Position numbers and translations under genes: made by a program. From assembly GCA_963792585.1 (NCBI GenBank), contig CAWBWI010000005.1, forward strand, positions 157,312-221,311: 64,000 bases of DNA, read 5' to 3'. Of this stretch, positions 18,070 through 26,690 are shown one piece after another; positions within the stretch are counted from its first letter, which is position 1; the number at the start of each line of letters is the position of its first letter. The stretch is from Candidatus Eiseniibacteriota bacterium. GTDB lineage: Bacteria; Eisenbacteria; RBG-16-71-46; CAIMUX01; VGJL01. Below the pieces are notes generated by a model that was not told where the DNA came from, did not search any database, and worked only from the letters and a program-made list of their open reading frames with translations.

Positions 18070-20367
18070 TCAGACGAGCCAGGCGTAGCCGAGCTTCATG
18101 AAGATCGTGCGATCCTCCGGCCGTAGCCCCCTCACGCGGGATCCAGCGTGATTCCCGGAGTAGCCGAGGTAGACGACGGTTTGAGGATTGACCTTGTACG
18201 AAAGCAGGAGTTGCCCGAAGAGGGCGCGGGACCTCGGCTGCAGGTCCATGGCGGGGTCGTAGAGCCTCGTGTTCAGCATCAAGTCCTCGTACTGAACGAT
18301 CGCGCGCGCGTAGGTGCGGACGTTGAACTGATAGACGAATCGCGAGTCGATCAGATTGATTTCGTAGAGCGTCTCGTCCGCTTCGGTGAGTCGCTGGTAG
18401 GTGTGATCGATGGTCATGCTCAGATGGTGCCCCAGGTTCCACTGGAAGCCGGGGCCGCCGCTCAGGTCCCGAGCCGGTCGGGCGTTCGCGTAGTCGATCG
18501 CCTTCCCCGTCCAGACGGTGAACCATCCCTTGAACGCGCCGACCGGTTGTCCCTCTATGTGGAAGCGGCCCGTCGTCACATCGTAGAGACGGCCGAGGTA
18601 TCGCTCCCGCGCGATGGTGAACTGCGCGTCCGATTCCGATTGCATCGGCCCTTGATAGCTGCCGCTGATCTCGATGCCGGAGTCGGTGAGTACCCCTCCC
18701 ATGTCGGTGGTCCTCTGAGCTTCAACGCCGTAGTTGAGGCGGGTGAACCACGATTCCTTCGCGCCATAGATGTGGCGCTGCGCGCCCACCTCGTAGTGCC
18801 GGACGTCGACCCGCGGGACGAAGCCCGCGTCGGCCCGGAAGTTCTGATCCAGGTTCTCGCCGTAAAACCAGCCGCTCCAGCCGCGCCTGTCGTGAGAATA
18901 GAGCAGGCTGCCTCCGAATCCGCCGAACGCGCGCGCCGGCTGGCCATATGCGGCAGCCGTCTCTTTCGGATAATGGGTCGCGGAGCCCACGGCCTGGTAA
19001 CGGATGAGATCTCCCTTTCCGATTCGGATGTGGCCGTCGAAGCCATACACGCGGTTGGAGTAGGAATCGCCTTCCCGGTCGGTGGCCAGCACCCCGATCG
19101 CCGATGCGCTCCCCACGTCCCGGCGGTAGCGGAGGACCCCGCTCGTCACCTTCCGGTCGAGGGCCGTCCCGTCGGATGAGAGATTCGATGGGAAGATCAG
19201 GTTGGGGTGATCGTCGCGCGTCACGAAGAGACCCACTGCAGACCCCGCGAGCTTGCCGGTCACCTTGCCGCCCCACGAGGGATCGACGACCGTTCGGGTG
19301 TAGACCGTTTGCAGCGGGGTTGCGAAGAAGTCCGAGCCCTCGAGGAAGAGGGGACGCTTTTCCGCATACTGCAGGGCGAAACGATTGTTGACCTCGAGCT
19401 GCACGGCGTCCGCTTCGACCTGGGAGAAGTCGGGATTGACGGCCGCGTTGAGGCTCAGGTTCGGCGTGACGCCCCAGCGGGCCGAGAGTCCCGCATCAGC
19501 CTTCTGATCTTCCTTCCGGAGGTGGCCGGACGATCCGACCGCGTCGGTTCGGTGGCCCGTCACCGTTGGATCGAATTCGAGGTTCCTCCCGGGCGTGATC
19601 CCCTCGAAACCGACGATCTTGCCCGCCTGCCGGAAGAAACCGCTCACGTCCCGATCGAAGATCACGGAGCTGAGCTGGTAGCGGACGCTCCGGGGGCGGG
19701 CGCGAAAAGCGACCAAGCCCCAAACCTGGGGACCGTCGGTGCGCGGGAAACGGAGCGCCGTGAAGGGAATCGCGATCTCGACCTCGTAGCCGTCGGCGGT
19801 GATCCGCCCCGCCGTGTTCCAGATCGCGTCCCAGGTGGAATCCTCGGGATCGTCCTCCGCCATATCGTTGCGGGCGAGGTCCATCTGCACACCGAATGGA
19901 TTGACGAAGAACTCGAAACCGCGGCGCTCATCGTTGAACGGGTCGATCATCAGGCCGACGAAGTCGTCCCGGAACGCGGCATCGCGATCGCTCAGGTGGG
20001 CGCGGATCTCGTCGGGCCTGGGGTCGCGAGCCCGGAATGCCGCATAGAAGTTCTGTTCATCGAAGGTGAGGAGGCACTCGGTCGCGACGGGCGCCGGGAC
20101 GTTGTCTCCCGGCTCGATTTCATACGGCAGGTCGATGACGAGGGCCCGACTCCATGCGGCATCGTCGAGCAGGCCGTCTACGTGGACGGACGACGTTGCG
20201 CGCGGCACCGGCCGCGGCGTTCTCTCCGAGGCAATCCGGCCGGCCGAGACGGCTCGAGGCTCATCGGCCCCGGCGCGCGCCGTCGGCAGCCCCCCCGCGA
20301 GCGCGAAGAAGCACGCAAGACACCAGAGGACTCGAAGAGCTGAGAGTGAACGATTCCCGCGGCGCAT
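18070..20367 (-). CDS. CBM9-like/DUF5916 outer-membrane protein
   Basis: VDGLLDDAAW, NPFGVQMD, EIAIPFTALRF, NPDFSQVEADA, EKRPLFLEG, C-terminal FMKLGYAW. Confidence 0.8.
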   Translation of the reverse strand: MRRGNRSLSALRVLWCLACFFALAGGLPTARAGADEPRAVSAGRIASERTPRPVPRATSSVHVDGLLDDAAWSRALVIDLPYEIEPGDNVPAPVATECLLTFDEQNFYAAFRARDPRPDEIRAHLSDRDAAFRDDFVGLMIDPFNDERRGFEFFVNPFGVQMDLARNDMAEDDPEDSTWDAIWNTAGRITADGYEVEIAIPFTALRFPRTDGPQVWGLVAFRARPRSVRYQLSSVIFDRDVSGFFRQAGKIVGFEGITPGRNLEFDPTVTGHRTDAVGSSGHLRKEDQKADAGLSARWGVTPNLSLNAAVNPDFSQVEADAVQLEVNNRFALQYAEKRPLFLEGSDFFATPLQTVYTRTVVDPSWGGKVTGKLAGSAVGLFVTRDDHPNLIFPSNLSSDGTALDRKVTSGVLRYRRDVGSASAIGVLATDREGDSYSNRVYGFDGHIRIGKGDLIRYQAVGSATHYPKETAAAYGQPARAFGGFGGSLLYSHDRRGWSGWFYGENLDQNFRADAGFVPRVDVRHYEVGAQRHIYGAKESWFTRLNYGVEAQRTTDMGGVLTDSGIEISGSYQGPMQSESDAQFTIARERYLGRLYDVTTGRFHIEGQPVGAFKGWFTVWTGKAIDYANARPARDLSGGPGFQWNLGHHLSMTIDHTYQRLTEADETLYEINLIDSRFVYQFNVRTYARAIVQYEDLMLNTRLYDPAMDLQPRSRALFGQLLLSYKVNPQTVVYLGYSGNHAGSRVRGLRPEDRTIFMKLGYAWLV

Positions 20368-20475
20368 CCCCCCACCTTCCAGACCGATCGACCGGGCGTC
20401 ATACGAGTTTCCCGGCTCGAAGGTTTCCACATTCGCGTCGTCACTCACGTCTGTAATCATTTATGCTGCGGCGTA

Positions 20476-21726
20476 TTACAGCTTCTGCACCACCACCGCG
20501 GTGATGTCGTCCGTCTGCGGCGCGCTTCCGGCGTGCCGGTCGACCGCACCAAAGAGTGCGTCGAGGACATCGGCCACCGGAAGTCCTCGCGTCGCCCGCA
20601 AGACGTCCCGAAACCGGCGCAGGCCGAACGGTCTCCCCAACCGATCCTCACGCTCGATCAATCCGTCGGTGTACATCACGACCCTGTCGTCCGGCCGGAG
20701 GCGGACATGCCCCCGCTCGTAGCGCGCCGCGGGATTCGGACCGAGCACGAGCCCCCCCCGATCGAGCGCCAGAAAGCGGTCTCCCCGCTGCAGAAACGGC
20801 GGGTTGTGGCCGGCATTGCAGTAGATCAAAGTGCCGCTGCGCTCGAACTCTCCATAGAAGAGGGATATGAACTTGCTCGAGAGGGCGGCGCGGTGGATCA
20901 CCTCGTTGAGTCGCTCGATCACCCGCACGACCTTCAGCTCCGGACGGATCCCCATCCGCAGTCCGGTGATCACGTCGCGCGCGAGCAGGGCCGCCGGGAG
21001 TCCGTGCCCCGAGGCGTCGGCGATGGTCACGCCGAACATCGAATCCGTGAGGCGAAGGTAGTCGAAGACATCCCCTCCGACGATTTCCGTGGGGCGCGAT
21101 CGACCGTCGATCTGGTATCCGTCGAACTGAGGCGGCGCCGCCGGGAGGAGGCTCTCCTGGATCACGCGGGATTCCTCGAGGATCCCGGAGAACTTCTGCT
21201 GTTCGAGTCGGAGATTGACAACGTGCCGGACCGCGCTCAGGGAATAGAGGATGTTCTCCTCACGGACCTCTCCGTTGATCGAGAAGGCGATTACGTGGGT
21301 GTTCCCCTTACCCACCGCGATGGCGGCGAATGTGGATCCGACCCCGAGGGTCTCCTCGATCGTGTCATCGAAGCCGGGGTCCCCGTGCTTCATGATCACG
21401 AGCCCTTCGTCGAGGGTCCGCTGGTGCGGGGGGTAGCTCCGCGGGACGCGATAGCCGATCGGCGCGCCGCGATTCGACCCGATCCGGACGAAAAGGGAAA
21501 AGTCCTCCCCGTCCCGCCGGTAGAGACGGCCGTGCTCGAATCCAAGTTCCTCCTGGAACCCCGAGATCAGGCTCTCGAGGATCCCCGAGAGCATCGTGGA
21601 CGGATCCTCGGCATGCTCGATCCTGCCGAGGACGGTCTCGAGCTTCCGGTAGAGCGCCTTGAAGTCCGCTCTCTTGGTCTCCAAGGTGGACACCGCCTTC
21701 GCCTGGGTCATCAGGACACCTTCCAT
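20476..21726 (-). CDS. SpoIIE/RsbU-type PP2C phosphatase with N-terminal GAF-like region
   Basis: VGGDVFDY, IADASGHGLPAAL, CNAGHNPP, YTDGLIE, DDITAVVV. Confidence 0.88.
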   Translation of the reverse strand: MEGVLMTQAKAVSTLETKRADFKALYRKLETVLGRIEHAEDPSTMLSGILESLISGFQEELGFEHGRLYRRDGEDFSLFVRIGSNRGAPIGYRVPRSYPPHQRTLDEGLVIMKHGDPGFDDTIEETLGVGSTFAAIAVGKGNTHVIAFSINGEVREENILYSLSAVRHVVNLRLEQQKFSGILEESRVIQESLLPAAPPQFDGYQIDGRSRPTEIVGGDVFDYLRLTDSMFGVTIADASGHGLPAALLARDVITGLRMGIRPELKVVRVIERLNEVIHRAALSSKFISLFYGEFERSGTLIYCNAGHNPPFLQRGDRFLALDRGGLVLGPNPAARYERGHVRLRPDDRVVMYTDGLIEREDRLGRPFGLRRFRDVLRATRGLPVADVLDALFGAVDRHAGSAPQTDDITAVVVQKL

Positions 21727-21824
21727 GTCTCCTCCGCGCGGTCGCTCTTTCCAAGACGCAGGGAGACGGCCATCCGTTCAGTGGGAAGATACCGGTTCGG
21801 GAGGGGGGAAGAAAACCGGGTCCG

Positions 21825-22976
21825 TCAGCCGTGCCGTTCCCGCAGGATGTGGGCTGCCTCGACGATGCGACGCATCTTTCCCGTCGCCGTGGCTTCGTCG
21901 TTCACGCAGCGGTCGGCGAAACACCCGAATCCGCAGTCGGGATTCAGGAAGATCGCCTCGGGGGGGTAGAACGCCAAGGCGCGCTCGACCCGCGCGACGA
22001 TTTCGTCGACGGTCTCGATCTCCGCGGTCCTCGGGTTGACGACCCCGAGACCGATCTCCCGATCGCCGAGGGCCGTGCCCACGACCTCGACATCCCCGGC
22101 GCGCGGGGTCGCGTACTCGAGGACGAACTGGCGCACGCGCATCCGATCGAAGGCGGGCAGCAGGCGCGTGTAGTCGCCCGACAACAGGACATCCTCCCGC
22201 CGGCTCCAGTTCCCGCGGCAGACATGGATGCCGATCCGCATCGCGCCGAGCCCCTCGACCACTTTGTTCAGGAGGTCGGCAGCGTAGTCGAGTTCCGAAC
22301 CCGCGTCCCGGCGGGTTGCCAGTGTCGCTCACATGAATGTTCGTCGATCGCATTCCTCCGACATGACGATCTCCGTCAGGACCGGCTCGTCGAACTGGAC
22401 GAAGTCGCACCCAGCCGCCGCGAGATCGGACAGCTCCTCGCGAAGCAGCCGGACGACATCTTCACCCATCTCGGTCTTGTCGGAGTAGACCTTCCCGGAG
22501 AAGGCGCCGACCCACATCGCGCGCGTCAGCAGGTACGGACCCGGCAGGGTCACCTTCACGGGCTTGTCCGTCAGTCCGCGGACGAAACGGAACTCCTCGA
22601 GCGCCAGCGGCTCGCGCCGGGAGAGTCGACCGACGCATGTCGGGTTGCTGATCGCGGAAGCGGGCACGTCGAGGGTCGAGAGCATCTCCTCGAATCCCGA
22701 CTTGTCCTCGACCGTGTCGAGCATCTCGGCCAGCGTCATCAACCTGGCGCCGTTCAGCTTCTCGGAGACGAATGAATAGAAGTTGTCCCTGCGGTGCTCG
22801 CCGTCGACGACGATGTCGACGCCGGCGTCGAGCTGGATCTGAACGGTTCGCCGGACTTCTTCGTCGGCGATCCGCTCGAAGGCCTCGCTCGCGATGCGGC
22901 CCTTGCGCCGGTCCCTCAGTGCGCGCAGGAGTTCCTGCGAGCGCGGCCAGCTTCCTACCTGGGTCACCGTGAACAT
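21825..22976 (-). CDS. Cobalamin-independent methionine synthase II family protein, 383 aa if the in-frame TGA is read as selenocysteine
   Basis: ORFs 22329..22994 and 21825..22262 are in the same frame, separated only by TGA at 22331-22329 (RRTFM*ATLATRRDAGSELDYAADLLNKVVEG). Motifs VGSWPRS, DGEHRR, QFDEP, HVCRGNW, LEYATPRAG, NPDCGF. Confidence 0.85.
22295..22322 (-). promoter_or_regulatory. Candidate bacterial SECIS hairpin in the MetE-like gene
   Basis: mRNA after UGA reads GCGACA-CUG-GC-AACCCGC-CGGGAC-GCGGGUU-CGG: perfect 7-bp upper stem starting 11 nt after UGA, G in loop position 2. Confidence 0.7.
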
Positions 22977-22990
22977 GGTCGGATGTCCTC

Positions 22991-23734
22991 TCACACGATC
23001 GCCAGCTTGAGGTCGAGGTCGACCGCCCGCCTCAGGGTCGAGGCGATCGGCGAGCGGAGAACGGTGCGCTCCCAGGCCTCCCGCACGCGGCCTTCATCCT
23101 CCATGGTCGAAGCGAAGCACTTCACCTCGATCCTCTGGAATGAGGGGTCGCCCTCCTGCAGGCCCAGGTGCGCCAGGACGTTTCCCAGCCGCCCCTTGAT
23201 CGTGATCTCCACGTCATCGATCCCGATGCCGGACCGGGAGCACTCGGTGGCGAAACCGACGGTGAGGTCCCCCGCCAACGCGCCGAGCATCACCTCGACC
23301 GCCGACGGATGCCGGTCCTTCTCCTCGAAGCTCGCCGGCTGCCCGACGTCGAACGAGAAGTTCCTGCAGTAGACGGTGCTCTTCAACGGACCGGTCGCGC
23401 GGACGCGCAGGCGCCACTCGTACTCGCGGGCGCGTTCCTTGTCCTTCTCCAGGGCCCTCTGCTCGTCCGCGGTATTCCCCCCGCGCCGAACGAAGTAGCG
23501 GGCCAGGGGCCCTTCCTTCACCGCGCCGAGGAACTCGTGGCCGACCATCCGGCACCAAGGGGGAAGGTCATCGCCGACGGTCGGCTCATGGCTGCGCATC
23601 TCGAGGACTCCCCCGTCCGGGACCTTGAGCATGTGCTCCCGAATCAGGAGGATCAGCCCGGAGCCGCAGTCGAGCTCTCCGCCGTCGAAGACGTGGTCGG
23701 GTCGGATCGCAGCCGGATCGATGGGTTCGGTCAT
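22991..23734 (-). CDS. TusA-like sulfur carrier fused to an OsmC-like domain
   Basis: N-terminal FDGGELDCGSGL...DLPPWCRMVGHEFLG (TusA/SirA fold). C-terminal PSAVEVMLGALAGDL...RSPIASTL (OsmC fold). Confidence 0.8.
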   Translation of the reverse strand: MTEPIDPAAIRPDHVFDGGELDCGSGLILLIREHMLKVPDGGVLEMRSHEPTVGDDLPPWCRMVGHEFLGAVKEGPLARYFVRRGGNTADEQRALEKDKERAREYEWRLRVRATGPLKSTVYCRNFSFDVGQPASFEEKDRHPSAVEVMLGALAGDLTVGFATECSRSGIGIDDVEITIKGRLGNVLAHLGLQEGDPSFQRIEVKCFASTMEDEGRVREAWERTVLRSPIASTLRRAVDLDLKLAIV

Positions 23735-23737
23735 TTC

Positions 23738-24103
23738 CTAGTACGACACACTCGGCGTGCCGCCGGAGAGGAACTCGACGAGCGCCGCCCCACCCGCGAG
23801 GGTCGCGCCGGGGATCAGCTGATCCTCCGTGATCGCCCGCTTCTTCGTGCAGGGCGTGCAGACGAGGATCTTGCCGCCGCCGGCAATGTACTTGTCGACG
23901 AGCTCCTTGAGGGGCGCGAATGGCGCGCCGATCGAGATCTTCTCCGCCTCTCCCTTCACCGCGGCCCAGACGCCGTCGGTGCTGAGAAAGATCATCGTAT
24001 CCTTCTCGCTACCCAGAGCCGCGTTGGCGACGACGAAACCGACCGTCGCCTTGTCGCCGTCCTCGCGGCAGTGGTTGAGCAAGACACAGAACTTCTCCGC
24101 CAT
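23738..24103 (-). CDS. DsrE/DsrF-like family protein
   Basis: KATVGFVVANAAL, IFLSTDGV, GGKILVCTPCTKKR. Confidence 0.85.
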   Translation of the reverse strand: MAEKFCVLLNHCREDGDKATVGFVVANAALGSEKDTMIFLSTDGVWAAVKGEAEKISIGAPFAPLKELVDKYIAGGGKILVCTPCTKKRAITEDQLIPGATLAGGAALVEFLSGGTPSVSY

Positions 24104-24104
24104 A

Positions 24105-24353
24105 CTAATCGCTCCTCTCTTTCACCTTCACGAGGTAGTAGGGGTGCTTTGCTTCGATCAGCCGGTGCCCCGTCATGCGGCACCATGCCGGCATCTCCAC
24201 AGGCGCCCCCTCGTCGTGCGCTGTCACGAGGACGAACGTTCCGCCCTCCTGTTTCCGAAAATGCATGCGCAGATCGATCAGGATCTCACCGCAGCCGGTG
24301 CCTTTCCCATCGAACTCCGAGTCATGCTTCCAGCCCGCGGGCGGACCGTCCAT
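24105..24353 (-). CDS. TusA/SirA-family sulfurtransferase
   Basis: 82-aa MDGPPAGWKHDSEFDGKGTGCGEILIDL...EMPAWCRMTGHRL. GGGAGG RBS. Confidence 0.8.
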   Translation of the reverse strand: MDGPPAGWKHDSEFDGKGTGCGEILIDLRMHFRKQEGGTFVLVTAHDEGAPVEMPAWCRMTGHRLIEAKHPYYLVKVKERSD

Positions 24354-24560
24354 CGTGCCAGCCTCCCAGCCCGCCTGGGATTCGAGCCCCCGGCGGACAT
24401 GGGCTCGATCGTAGCACCTGCCTTCTCCATTCTGTGTCGCATCTTGCCTGTGCCGCATCTTGCTGCCTCGAGGCTCGCCCGCGTGATAGAATTGGTCGGA
24501 TTGTTGTGGTCTGACCTCGTGCGCGGCCGCGCACGGCGCACGGAGGTGTGCTTGAGACGA

Positions 24561-26690
24561 ATGCTCCTCGTCTGCCTTCTGCTCCTCCCCGCGAGGACGA
24601 ACGCCATCACCCTCCGGGAAGCCTTCGAGCGGGCGGGCCCGGCGGATGGCTACGACAAGTACGTCGTCCTCGAACCGGGAGTGACCTACACGGGCGGACT
24701 CCTGATCGGCCCGATCTTCAGCCCGATCGCCTATGGGCTCGAAGGAGAAGAGGGGAAGGACGTACGGATCGTCGGGAACGGAGCAGTCCTCGATCTGCGG
24801 GGTGGACAGATCTGCATCTCCTATTGCATGAACCGCCTCGACATCGACGACTGCGTCGTGCTTCGTGGCAACATCCGTTTCCGTGGGATCAATACCGCGG
24901 ACGATGTCGCGCTCCCGACGGGATCGGTCCGGCACGTCACCTTCTACAAGCCGCACGACTACGGAATCCGACTCCAGGGCTCCGGAGACGGGATCACGCT
25001 CGAACGCAATCTGGTCGTCGATGCGGTCGACACCGGCTGGGATTACGTCTACATGACCGGAATCTCAAATAGCTGGTTGCCCACGGGGACCAACATCTCG
25101 TTCAGCGGGCAGTACGGATGGTACGGCACACCCGTGGTGCGCGAGAACTGGTCCTACCAGAGCGACCCGGTTCGCAATGCCGATCCTCTGACCCACTTCT
25201 CGCGGCTCTGCGAATACGGCTGATTCGCGCCGATGCCGTGGCCGGGCGCCACCATGCCTCCGAACAACAACCGTTTCGGGGTGGATCCTCTCCTGCGGAA
25301 TCCGGAGGAAGGCGATTACCGGCCGGAGCCCGGATCACCGGCTGAAGGATACGGCTGTCGGACATTCCCACCCGGCGGGCCGCGGGCCGGCGCGCAAGAG
25401 GCACCCCGACCCACAGCCCTTCCCGCCGCGGGGACGCGGGAAACGGTTCAGGTTTCCGGTCCGATCCATGGCGACACCTCATGGGATGCCGATACGATCG
25501 CGGTCGTCGGCGACGTCACGATCGAAGACGGCGTGACCTTGTGGATTCGGCCGGGCGCATGCGTCGCCTTCCAGGGCGCCTACTCCTTGACCGTGATGGG
25601 TCGGCTCCTTGCGATTGGCACGCCGGAGCAGCGCATTGTCTTTACCGGTGGGGCGGCCATGGCTCGCACGGCGGGATCACGCGAAGGAAGCTGGACGGGG
25701 ATCCGCTTCCCGCGCACCGCGGCGACGAATGACTCGACGCGCCTCGAGTACTGCGTCATCGAGTACGCGCGGGCCCCCGCAGGGGGATCCTTCGGCGGCG
25801 CCCTTTTCTTCGACGGTTTCTCGAAGGCCGCCATCGTGAACTCGATCCTGCGCAGCAACGTGGCGCAGTTCGGCGGCGCCGTCTTCTGCATCCGCCAGGC
25901 ATCTCCGCGTTTCGCCGGCACGCTCATCACCGGCAACTCTGCGGAGGTCACCGCCTCGGCCGTCTACAGCATCGACTCCTATCCCACCTTCGCGAACTGC
26001 ACGATCGTGAACAACCACGACCGGAACGCCGAGCCGAGCTGGCCGACCGCCGCGTTCGTCAACTTCATCGCGAAGGCGCGCACGACCGGCTGCGTGGTTT
26101 GGGACAACCCCTCCTCCTACTTCCTCCCAACCCAGATGATCGAACCGAAGGCACCCTACACCACCTACGACGACATCCAGGGAGGGATCCCGGGCGAGGG
26201 AAACATCGACCTCGATCCGGCCTTCGCCGGAGATGCGGGACATCCCTATCGCCTGAGGGCCGACTCCCCGTGTCGGGACGCGACGGGAAACGCGACCGTT
26301 GGCCTGCCGGACCTCGATCTGGCCGGGTCGCTGCGGGTCGTCGGGGCGGCCGCTGACATCGGAGCCTACGAGTGGATCGACCCGAGCAGCGCGACCGAAA
26401 CCAGCGCGACGCCCCGCTTCGACTTCTCCCCGTGTCCGAATCCGACGGGCGGCGAGTCGGTCCTGCGTTTCACACTGCCCGCGCCGGCGCGTGTCGAAAT
26501 CGGGATCTATGATCTTGAGGGCCGACTCGTGCGCACCCTGCCCGGCGCCGACCTCGCATCGGGATCGCACGTGATGATCTGGGATGGAACGGACGCATCG
26601 GGTCGATCGGCGGCGGCGGGCGTCTACTATGCCCGGCTTTCGGCGGGGGACGCCGCCTCCGCCGTCGCGAAGATCACGATCGCAAGATAG
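24561..26690 (+). CDS. Secreted right-handed beta-helix protein with FlgD-Ig C-terminus, ~709 aa if the in-frame TGA is read as selenocysteine
   Basis: GGAGGT RBS and signal peptide MLLVCLLLLPARTNA (alternative TTG start at 24552). The ORF ending at TGA 25221-25223 and ORF 25233..26690 share a frame (RLCEYG*FAPMPWPG). C-terminal PNP...WDGTDASGRSAAAGVYY. Confidence 0.75.
25233..25255 (+). promoter_or_regulatory. Candidate bacterial SECIS hairpin in the beta-helix gene
   Basis: AUG-CC-GUGGC-CGGGC-GCCAC-CAU, loop 19 nt after UGA. Same CGGG loop start and 2-nt 5' bulge as the hairpin in the MetE-like gene. Confidence 0.6.

Follow-up and report, generated by a model that had tools for sequence, protein, structure and literature searches.

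The MetE fold is not tied to methionine synthesis, as the epoxyalkane:coenzyme M transferase, a zinc enzyme of the MetE family, has a thiol different from homocysteine as the target of its alkylation; we know of no TusA, DsrE or OsmC partners and of no selenocysteine (Sec) for this transferase. In the methionine synthase MesD, amino-acid-binding roles have been assigned to S22, E73 and D188 (PMC7857596). Transfer of sulfane sulfur from DsrE to TusA is documented (PMC11094781). For bacterial selenoproteins, the sections of PMC13188914 considered here describe the SECIS hairpin by a loop of 3-9 nt whose initial two positions include a G, a distance of 16-37 nt from the UGA and an MFE of -7.5 or lower.

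The window, i.e., the whole stretch of DNA analyzed, comprises 64,000 nt of contig CAWBWI010000005.1 (GCA_963792585.1) from Candidatus Eiseniibacteriota bacterium, whose genome is labelled G000. Its minus strand encodes a MetE-like protein with the following features:

21825..22976, minus strand: core MetE-like (PF01717) zinc enzyme, 383 aa with TGA216 read as Sec
22329..22331, minus strand: in-frame TGA, predicted Sec216, motif TFM-U-A, a Cys/TGA column in homologs
22298..22317, minus strand: predicted bacterial SECIS, stem AACCCGC/GCGGGUU, loop CGGGAC, G at +20 after the TGA
21933..22226, minus strand: codons of the zinc ligands H251, C253, E287 and C348, aligning with HxC, E and CG of MetE/MesD
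21921..21923, minus strand: C352, an extra Cys four residues past the zinc ligand C348, candidate resolving Cys

A MetE-like gene with an internal TGA

Read from 22976 to 21825 on the minus strand, the gene is a single frame of 383 codons and a stop, with codon 216 (RTFM*ATLA) as its only internal TGA. Re-reading of the sequence thus agrees with the initial annotation, which had described one TGA at 22331-22329 in an otherwise continuous frame. [quoted passage not shown] Judged by these profiles, the protein does not appear to be a full-length MetE.

The structure model (pLDDT 88.3, pTM 0.90) retrieved MetE catalytic domains and MesD 3RPD in Foldseek, with TM 0.73-0.77 and about 22% identity, and MesD 3RPD is also the best profile match. 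In full-length Sec forms, H251, C253, E287 and C348, as well as S9, E60 and D196, are each found in 75/75 sequences, the last three aligning with S22/E73/D188 of MesD 3RPD once a shift of 3 residues in the numbering is allowed for. As the four canonical zinc ligands and the homocysteine-binding residues are intact, Sec is a surplus residue, just as had been claimed from the DNA alone. It is carried in an insertion of about 13-19 residues after the DEP motif, just past D196, and is therefore probably on the active-site face, a placement taken from the topology, as is the presumed contact with the zinc site. In this family-specific loop the model is at its least reliable, with pLDDT of about 50 and residues 217-221 below 50. 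C352 is Cys in 75/75 Sec forms and in 36/36 of the nearest proteins, and the position is Thr in 82/84 more distant Cys forms.

Contigs of a related strain, assembled from runs X4 (DNA) and X17 (RNA library), span the TGA codon with 11 differences in 261 nt. None of the listed changes falls at the TGA codon or in the six-pair stem, and 4 of the 11 lie within 12 nt after the TGA, all being synonymous by inspection. The X17 contigs should be considered as indicating presence rather than transcription, and runs X2 and X3 do not cover the codon. An assembly error does not account for the TGA, as these independent contigs keep it and seven other genomes of the host's order carry a TGA in the aligned column; the support for the codon that the initial annotation had asked of raw reads comes from assembled contigs.

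Downstream on the minus strand of the window are a SpoIIE-type phosphatase (20476-21726) and a DUF5916/CBM9 protein (18070-20460), neither of which recurs near homologs. Elsewhere in the genome, an EF-Tu-like gene (G000:C3:1187450-1188582) yields three separate partial matches that fall in different open frames, which is a sign of assembly indels.

Hairpin, Cys/TGA column and reading of the codon

The 7-bp stem, with the arms AACCCGC at 22317-22311 and GCGGGTT at 22304-22298, begins 11 nt after the TGA and is present as first claimed. Folded alone, the hairpin is no better than chance (z -0.51 to -0.80), two of three folding windows prefer another structure, and a similar hairpin filter passes 291/2479 TGA stops between long open frames in the GC-rich G000. 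The single-sequence evidence is thus weak and the case for a SECIS rests on conservation. For this, we considered 119 TGA loci among the matches listed, after four duplicates had been dropped; the hairpin lies outside the pattern used to search for them.

All five core G-C pairs are kept in 113/119 TGA loci, as compared with 12.3 expected when codons are redrawn according to the usage of each gene, a contrast that is inflated by kinship, as related genomes are not independent. The hairpin had been expected to persist in TGA-bearing homologs, and this count bears it out. The outermost A-U pair is kept in only 101/119. The Thr codon at +5 is ACC in 116/119 loci, the flanking Thr codons being ACC in 69 and 66; Arg at +6 is CGC in 112/119, and Arg at +7 is CGT (74) or CGG (38) and never CGC, giving a loop with GU or GG. 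Synonymous sites are frozen where the stem lies. Two-sided covariation in the stem is slight, with 2 changes in 48 chosen sequences. As a control, Cys forms sharing the identical peptide were sought in metagenomes; this control is small, with only 5 loci, 4 of which have Ser at the second Arg, and the full stem was found in none of the five.

With a spacing of 18, the loop CGGGAC and -10.7 kcal/mol, the hairpin of the window satisfies the constraints given in the consulted sections of PMC13188914. In our own implementation of these constraints, 110/119 TGA loci satisfy them at spacing 18, as do 2/13 Cys loci at another place. Of the nine failing TGA loci, seven are Bacteroidota, and six of these have a shifted hairpin. 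In the Bacteroidales loci L040, L046, L065, L116, L132 and L143, the TGA is followed by TRSDA[DG] and the shifted hairpin has a 7-nt loop, AGATGCA or GGATGCA, possibly a lineage-specific SECIS. An Rfam scan of positions 20000-26000 gave no match, and a scan for sigma-70 promoters and terminators found none.

The column itself is Cys in 119/120 of the best protein homologs, the remaining one being a deletion, and the TFM[C/U] motif is almost invariant across homologs of 44-100% identity. The initial annotation had given RTFMC for the homologs, correctly, and had named a Trp or variable column as the finding that would count against it; among close homologs, the column is instead Cys or TGA. Of 206 genomes of the host phylum, 21 have a match and 8, including G000, have TGA at the column. 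In L163:4380-4400 (G009), a two-base gap lies at the TGA codon with the hairpin intact, reflecting either an assembly error or a pseudogene.

To follow the TGA form, we scanned one genome per species with the pattern DEP...TFM-TGA-A, which yielded at least 120 loci, with about 220 stretches estimated; as the pattern picks TGA forms, it gives no Sec-to-Cys ratio. Among the 120 loci listed, 115 are genuine homologs of 62-82% identity with the frame open on both sides, four lack an in-frame motif and one is a chance match. By record title, the TGA loci come from at least 12 phyla, with Desulfobacterota, Planctomycetota, Verrucomicrobiota, Acidobacteriota, Bacteroidota, Calditrichota, Chloroflexota and Gammaproteobacteria among the groups named, and include the type strains Desulfopila aestuarii DSM 18488 (L109) and Desulfobulbus alkaliphilus DSM 24258 (L104). 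Of 51 representatives that are more distant, 10 have Cys at the column, one has Trp, one Arg and 6 some other residue, and 33 lack the loop. Given this mixed or missing column, TFM[C/U] is to be regarded, at the level of sequence, as the marker of a subfamily. The Trp belongs to P0131, a distant homolog of 38% identity, and the database products P0128, P0160 and P0249 end at TFM.

Regarding the decoding machinery, G000 (84% complete) contains tRNA-Sec, and selA, selB and selD score over cut-off; selB is found in 55/57 TGA genomes tested. The selD gene of G000 (L005, G000:C6:192042, plus strand) itself contains one in-frame TGA (AG-U-AAK); its 8-bp hairpin begins 12 nt downstream, in a register similar to that of the MetE-like gene.

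Assembly indels elsewhere, a hairpin that is not significant when taken alone, the Trp of P0131 and the database products cut at TFM could each be cited for other readings of the TGA, namely as a real stop (the gene then being split or a pseudogene), as an error of sequencing or as a Trp codon in a different genetic code. The same TGA is, however, found in 119 loci with both halves conserved, the independent contigs keep it, and splitting the gene would part D196 from all zinc ligands. Moreover, both this gene and its upstream neighbour end in TGA where their homologs end, so TGA acts as a stop in G000. These explanations are thus largely refuted and, taken together, we consider them highly improbable. 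Based on the conserved TGA/Cys column, the conserved hairpin and the Sec machinery in the genome, UGA216 is predicted to be read as selenocysteine, with SelB decoding through the hairpin, to which we assign a probability of roughly 0.96.

In a 152-sequence tree, the Sec forms fall into a single clade (SH-aLRT 100) within which Cys forms are nested, and well-supported branches force at least three changes. In a 59-sequence FastTree rooted on loop-less homologs, Cys lineages branch first. The simplest reading, suggested by the trees, would be one Cys-to-Sec gain accompanied by C352, followed by reversions. The Cys forms L151-L154 and P0004-P0038, which are nested in the Sec clade, look like such Sec-to-Cys reversions; in the four for which the DNA available is sufficient, the full stem is missing. 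The family would provide a natural comparison series, made up of the ancestral Cys forms, a single Sec clade and the Cys revertants.

Partner genes and proposed function

The MetE-like gene is the last of an operon, following a small tusA, dsrE and a tusA/osmC fusion:

24105..24353, minus strand: small TusA-like protein, 82 aa, in 70/82 Sec loci
23738..24103, minus strand: DsrE-family protein, 121 aa, in 74/82 Sec loci
22991..23734, minus strand: TusA-OsmC fusion, 247 aa, with an OsmC-containing gene (fusion or standalone) in 80/82 Sec loci
22977..22990, minus strand: 14-nt gap containing GAGGA ahead of the ATG; the remaining operon gaps are 1 and 3 nt

All three partner genes are present in 68/74 Sec loci with at least 2140 nt upstream. 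In the fusion, C23 and C61 of the TusA domain are invariant and the OsmC domain has no invariant Cys; the DsrE protein, which has a CxxC, presents invariant C6, C82 and C85, while in the small TusA-like protein C21 is kept in 50/50 and C58 in 49/50. The TusA and DsrE profile matches are weak, that of TusA being under the Pfam cut-off, and a motif scan found no Sec in the partner genes. The clustering of these genes and their conserved cysteines are what a DsrE/TusA relay would be expected to present at the sequence level, yet such cysteine motifs could also carry something other than sulfur.

Distant Cys homologs of 43-48% identity are TusA-MetE fusions (L161, L162, L166, L167, P0126, P0130, P0138 and P0198), which suggests a partnership of TusA with the MetE-like enzyme. 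The fusion genes L162:918-2480, L166:1492-3090, L167:1492-3093 and L161:748-2076 lie behind dsrE and encode 520-530 aa; that of L161 is frameshifted near its end.

Downstream of the enzyme, a longer TusA-like protein whose N-terminal extension is rich in Cys is seen at L094:5694-7010 and also at L042, L043, L048, L058, L086, L096 and L107, being followed in L048 and L094 by an ArsM-like methyltransferase. At L165:1369-4011, a Cys form is followed by an OsmC-like gene and, by inspection, a probable rhodanese-like gene. In one Cys clade, DsrE and small TusA are found in 0/14 loci (with short flanks), and a standalone OsmC, an Rv1679-like acyl-CoA dehydrogenase and an Rv1680-like binding protein adjoin the enzyme. 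This alternative set is seen at L155:7425-11060, L099:598-3071 and L038:5695-9807, with L099 containing both it and the TusA/DsrE set. The Rv1680-like protein has no obvious signal peptide by inspection.

Several lines lead us to favor a relay, namely a full-length MetE gene and a MetH-length gene in G000, the lack of recurring corrinoid or MesX partners, the DsrE-to-TusA precedent and the TusA fusions. The MetE-like enzyme is thus likely to stand at the end of a relay that hands sulfur or selenium from DsrE to TusA, and not to be an ordinary methionine synthase. As to the chemistry, we give a little under even odds to Sec-mediated transfer of sulfane sulfur or selenium between TusA and a zinc-bound amino-acid thiol. 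Zinc would bind and activate a homocysteine-like thiol, and Sec216, carried by a mobile loop that follows D196, would make its attack either on a persulfidated cysteine of TusA or on the sulfur of the substrate. Through a transient Se-S bond, which C352 may resolve, one chalcogen atom would be passed between carrier and amino acid, with the Cys-free OsmC domain possibly being a dock or scaffold. The direction could be the building or the stripping of a sulfur amino acid. The relay does not explain the Cys clade with acyl-CoA-dehydrogenase-like and binding-protein-like genes.

The zinc and homocysteine-binding residues, all kept in 75/75 sequences, the MesD 3RPD profile match and the ArsM-like methyltransferases near 5/82 Sec loci would also suit a fifth family of folate-independent methionine synthase, in which Sec relays a methyl or methylthio group that the partners provide, in the manner of MesX for MesD. 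We regard this as unlikely, since the neighborhood clusters have no recurring corrinoid, folate or MesX gene and the partners have sulfur-carrier folds; indeed, the conserved TusA/DsrE/TusA-OsmC operon argues against a plain methionine synthase. PF03599 (Wood-Ljungdahl AcsC/AcsD, which a host of MesB or MesC would be expected to have) gave no match in G000, a genome that is 84% complete. MetE and MetH-length genes are available in the host, and a PF02574 protein is found in 52/57 TGA genomes, yet coexistence with MetH is also usual (75%) for the true synthase MesD (PMC7857596).

In the Bacteroidota loci L046:1216-2963 and L095:3-2885, yedF and selD are directly upstream of the operon, in L095 together with a cysteine desulfurase/Sec-lyase-like gene, and in Cys-type operons the binding protein has a weak similarity to TIGR04553, described as a putative selenate-binding protein. 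Such neighbors would fit selenium salvage, whereby the enzyme strips selenium from selenohomocysteine, selenomethionine or a similar compound and TusA and DsrE carry it to SelD. Against this, which we find distinctly unlikely, the selD link is found in only 2/82 loci, both of one phylum, and an enzyme that itself requires selenium would presumably be a poor scavenger under selenium starvation. An enrichment of selB in Cys-form hosts was considered and rejected (9/10 genomes vs a phylum background of 179/206).

Sec could, moreover, be incorporated without being the catalytic nucleophile; it would then be a redox switch or a zinc ligand that can be exchanged, and the partners would maintain its redox state. 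The four intact canonical ligands, by which Sec is surplus, the predicted flexibility of the loop, the CxxC of DsrE and the two Cys per TusA domain would agree with such a role. The near invariance of TFM[C/U] over 44-100% identity is opposed to it, as is the rule, given in the consulted part of PMC13188914, that Sec in characterized selenoproteins is at the catalytic site, and we hold this role to be quite improbable.

Returning to the relay, our tentative proposal, put somewhat more cautiously than the transfer chemistry itself, is that this would be the first selenoenzyme of the MetE superfamily and a novel type of catalysis, in which a zinc-thiolate site paired with a Sec shuttle moves sulfur or selenium between the TusA/DsrE carriers and an amino acid of the homocysteine type, with no need for PLP, folate or cobalamin. 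If true, a pathway in more than a dozen phyla would have gone unrecognized, concealed by the truncation of the protein at TFM in gene calling.

Comparison with known systems

Table 1 of PMC13188914, a 2026 catalogue, has no PF01717 or methionine-synthase-like row among its 119 families, in accordance with the initial annotation, which knew of no such family among the classical bacterial selenoproteins. Term searches of PMC12013277 and of the main text of PMC13326102 gave no methionine-synthase-like selenoprotein, atlas searches returned only generic names, and we found no literature report of the selenoprotein or its operon, with Haft and Tolstoy 2025 being covered only through the rows of Table 1 in PMC13188914. 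Almost certainly, this is a real and widespread selenoprotein family of known fold, the partner set of which is undescribed. With about 220 stretches estimated at one genome per species, the family is widespread, yet its products in the databases are truncated.

With MetE's C-terminal catalytic domain (1XPG, 1XDJ, 4ZTX), the enzyme shares the barrel fold (TM 0.76), the His/Cys/Glu/Cys zinc site and the Ser/Glu/Asp amino-acid-binding residues. Unlike MetE, it has no folate-binding barrel at its N terminus, is only about 22% identical, falls far under the NCBIfam cut-offs and has the additional insertion after DEP that carries Sec. The single catalytic domain and the functional residues are also those of MesD/MesX and MesA-C, and an adjoining dedicated partner is common to MesD and the window operon. 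However, identity to MesD 3RPD is 22%, as compared with the 55-72% MesD thresholds of PMC7857596, and the partner of MesD is DUF1852 (MesX), whereas those of the window enzyme have TusA, DsrE and OsmC folds. With MesX absent among the neighbors, the sequence does not place the enzyme within MesD, for which at least about 55% identity and an adjacent DUF1852 would be expected. In addition, 3RPD has no Sec/Cys loop, and many hosts of the Sec family are anaerobes.

As in the sHdr DsrE3/TusA relay, insofar as it is described in the consulted part of PMC11094781, DsrE- and TusA-family genes with conserved cysteines are adjacent. The end point differs, being a MetE-like enzyme in the window, and Hdr, LbpA and Dsr genes do not recur among the neighbors. 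With the bacterial selenoproteins catalogued in PMC13188914, as far as the available sections describe them, the family shares the UGA/Cys column, a hairpin 18 nt downstream with a loop G and a host with SelABCD. DsrE-like and OsmC-like selenoproteins are listed in Table 1 of that catalogue, whereas the window-type partners are without Sec. Most catalogued selenoproteins are thiol oxidoreductases, and Sec beside an intact zinc-thiolate site in a methionine-synthase fold would be a new chemical setting for this element.
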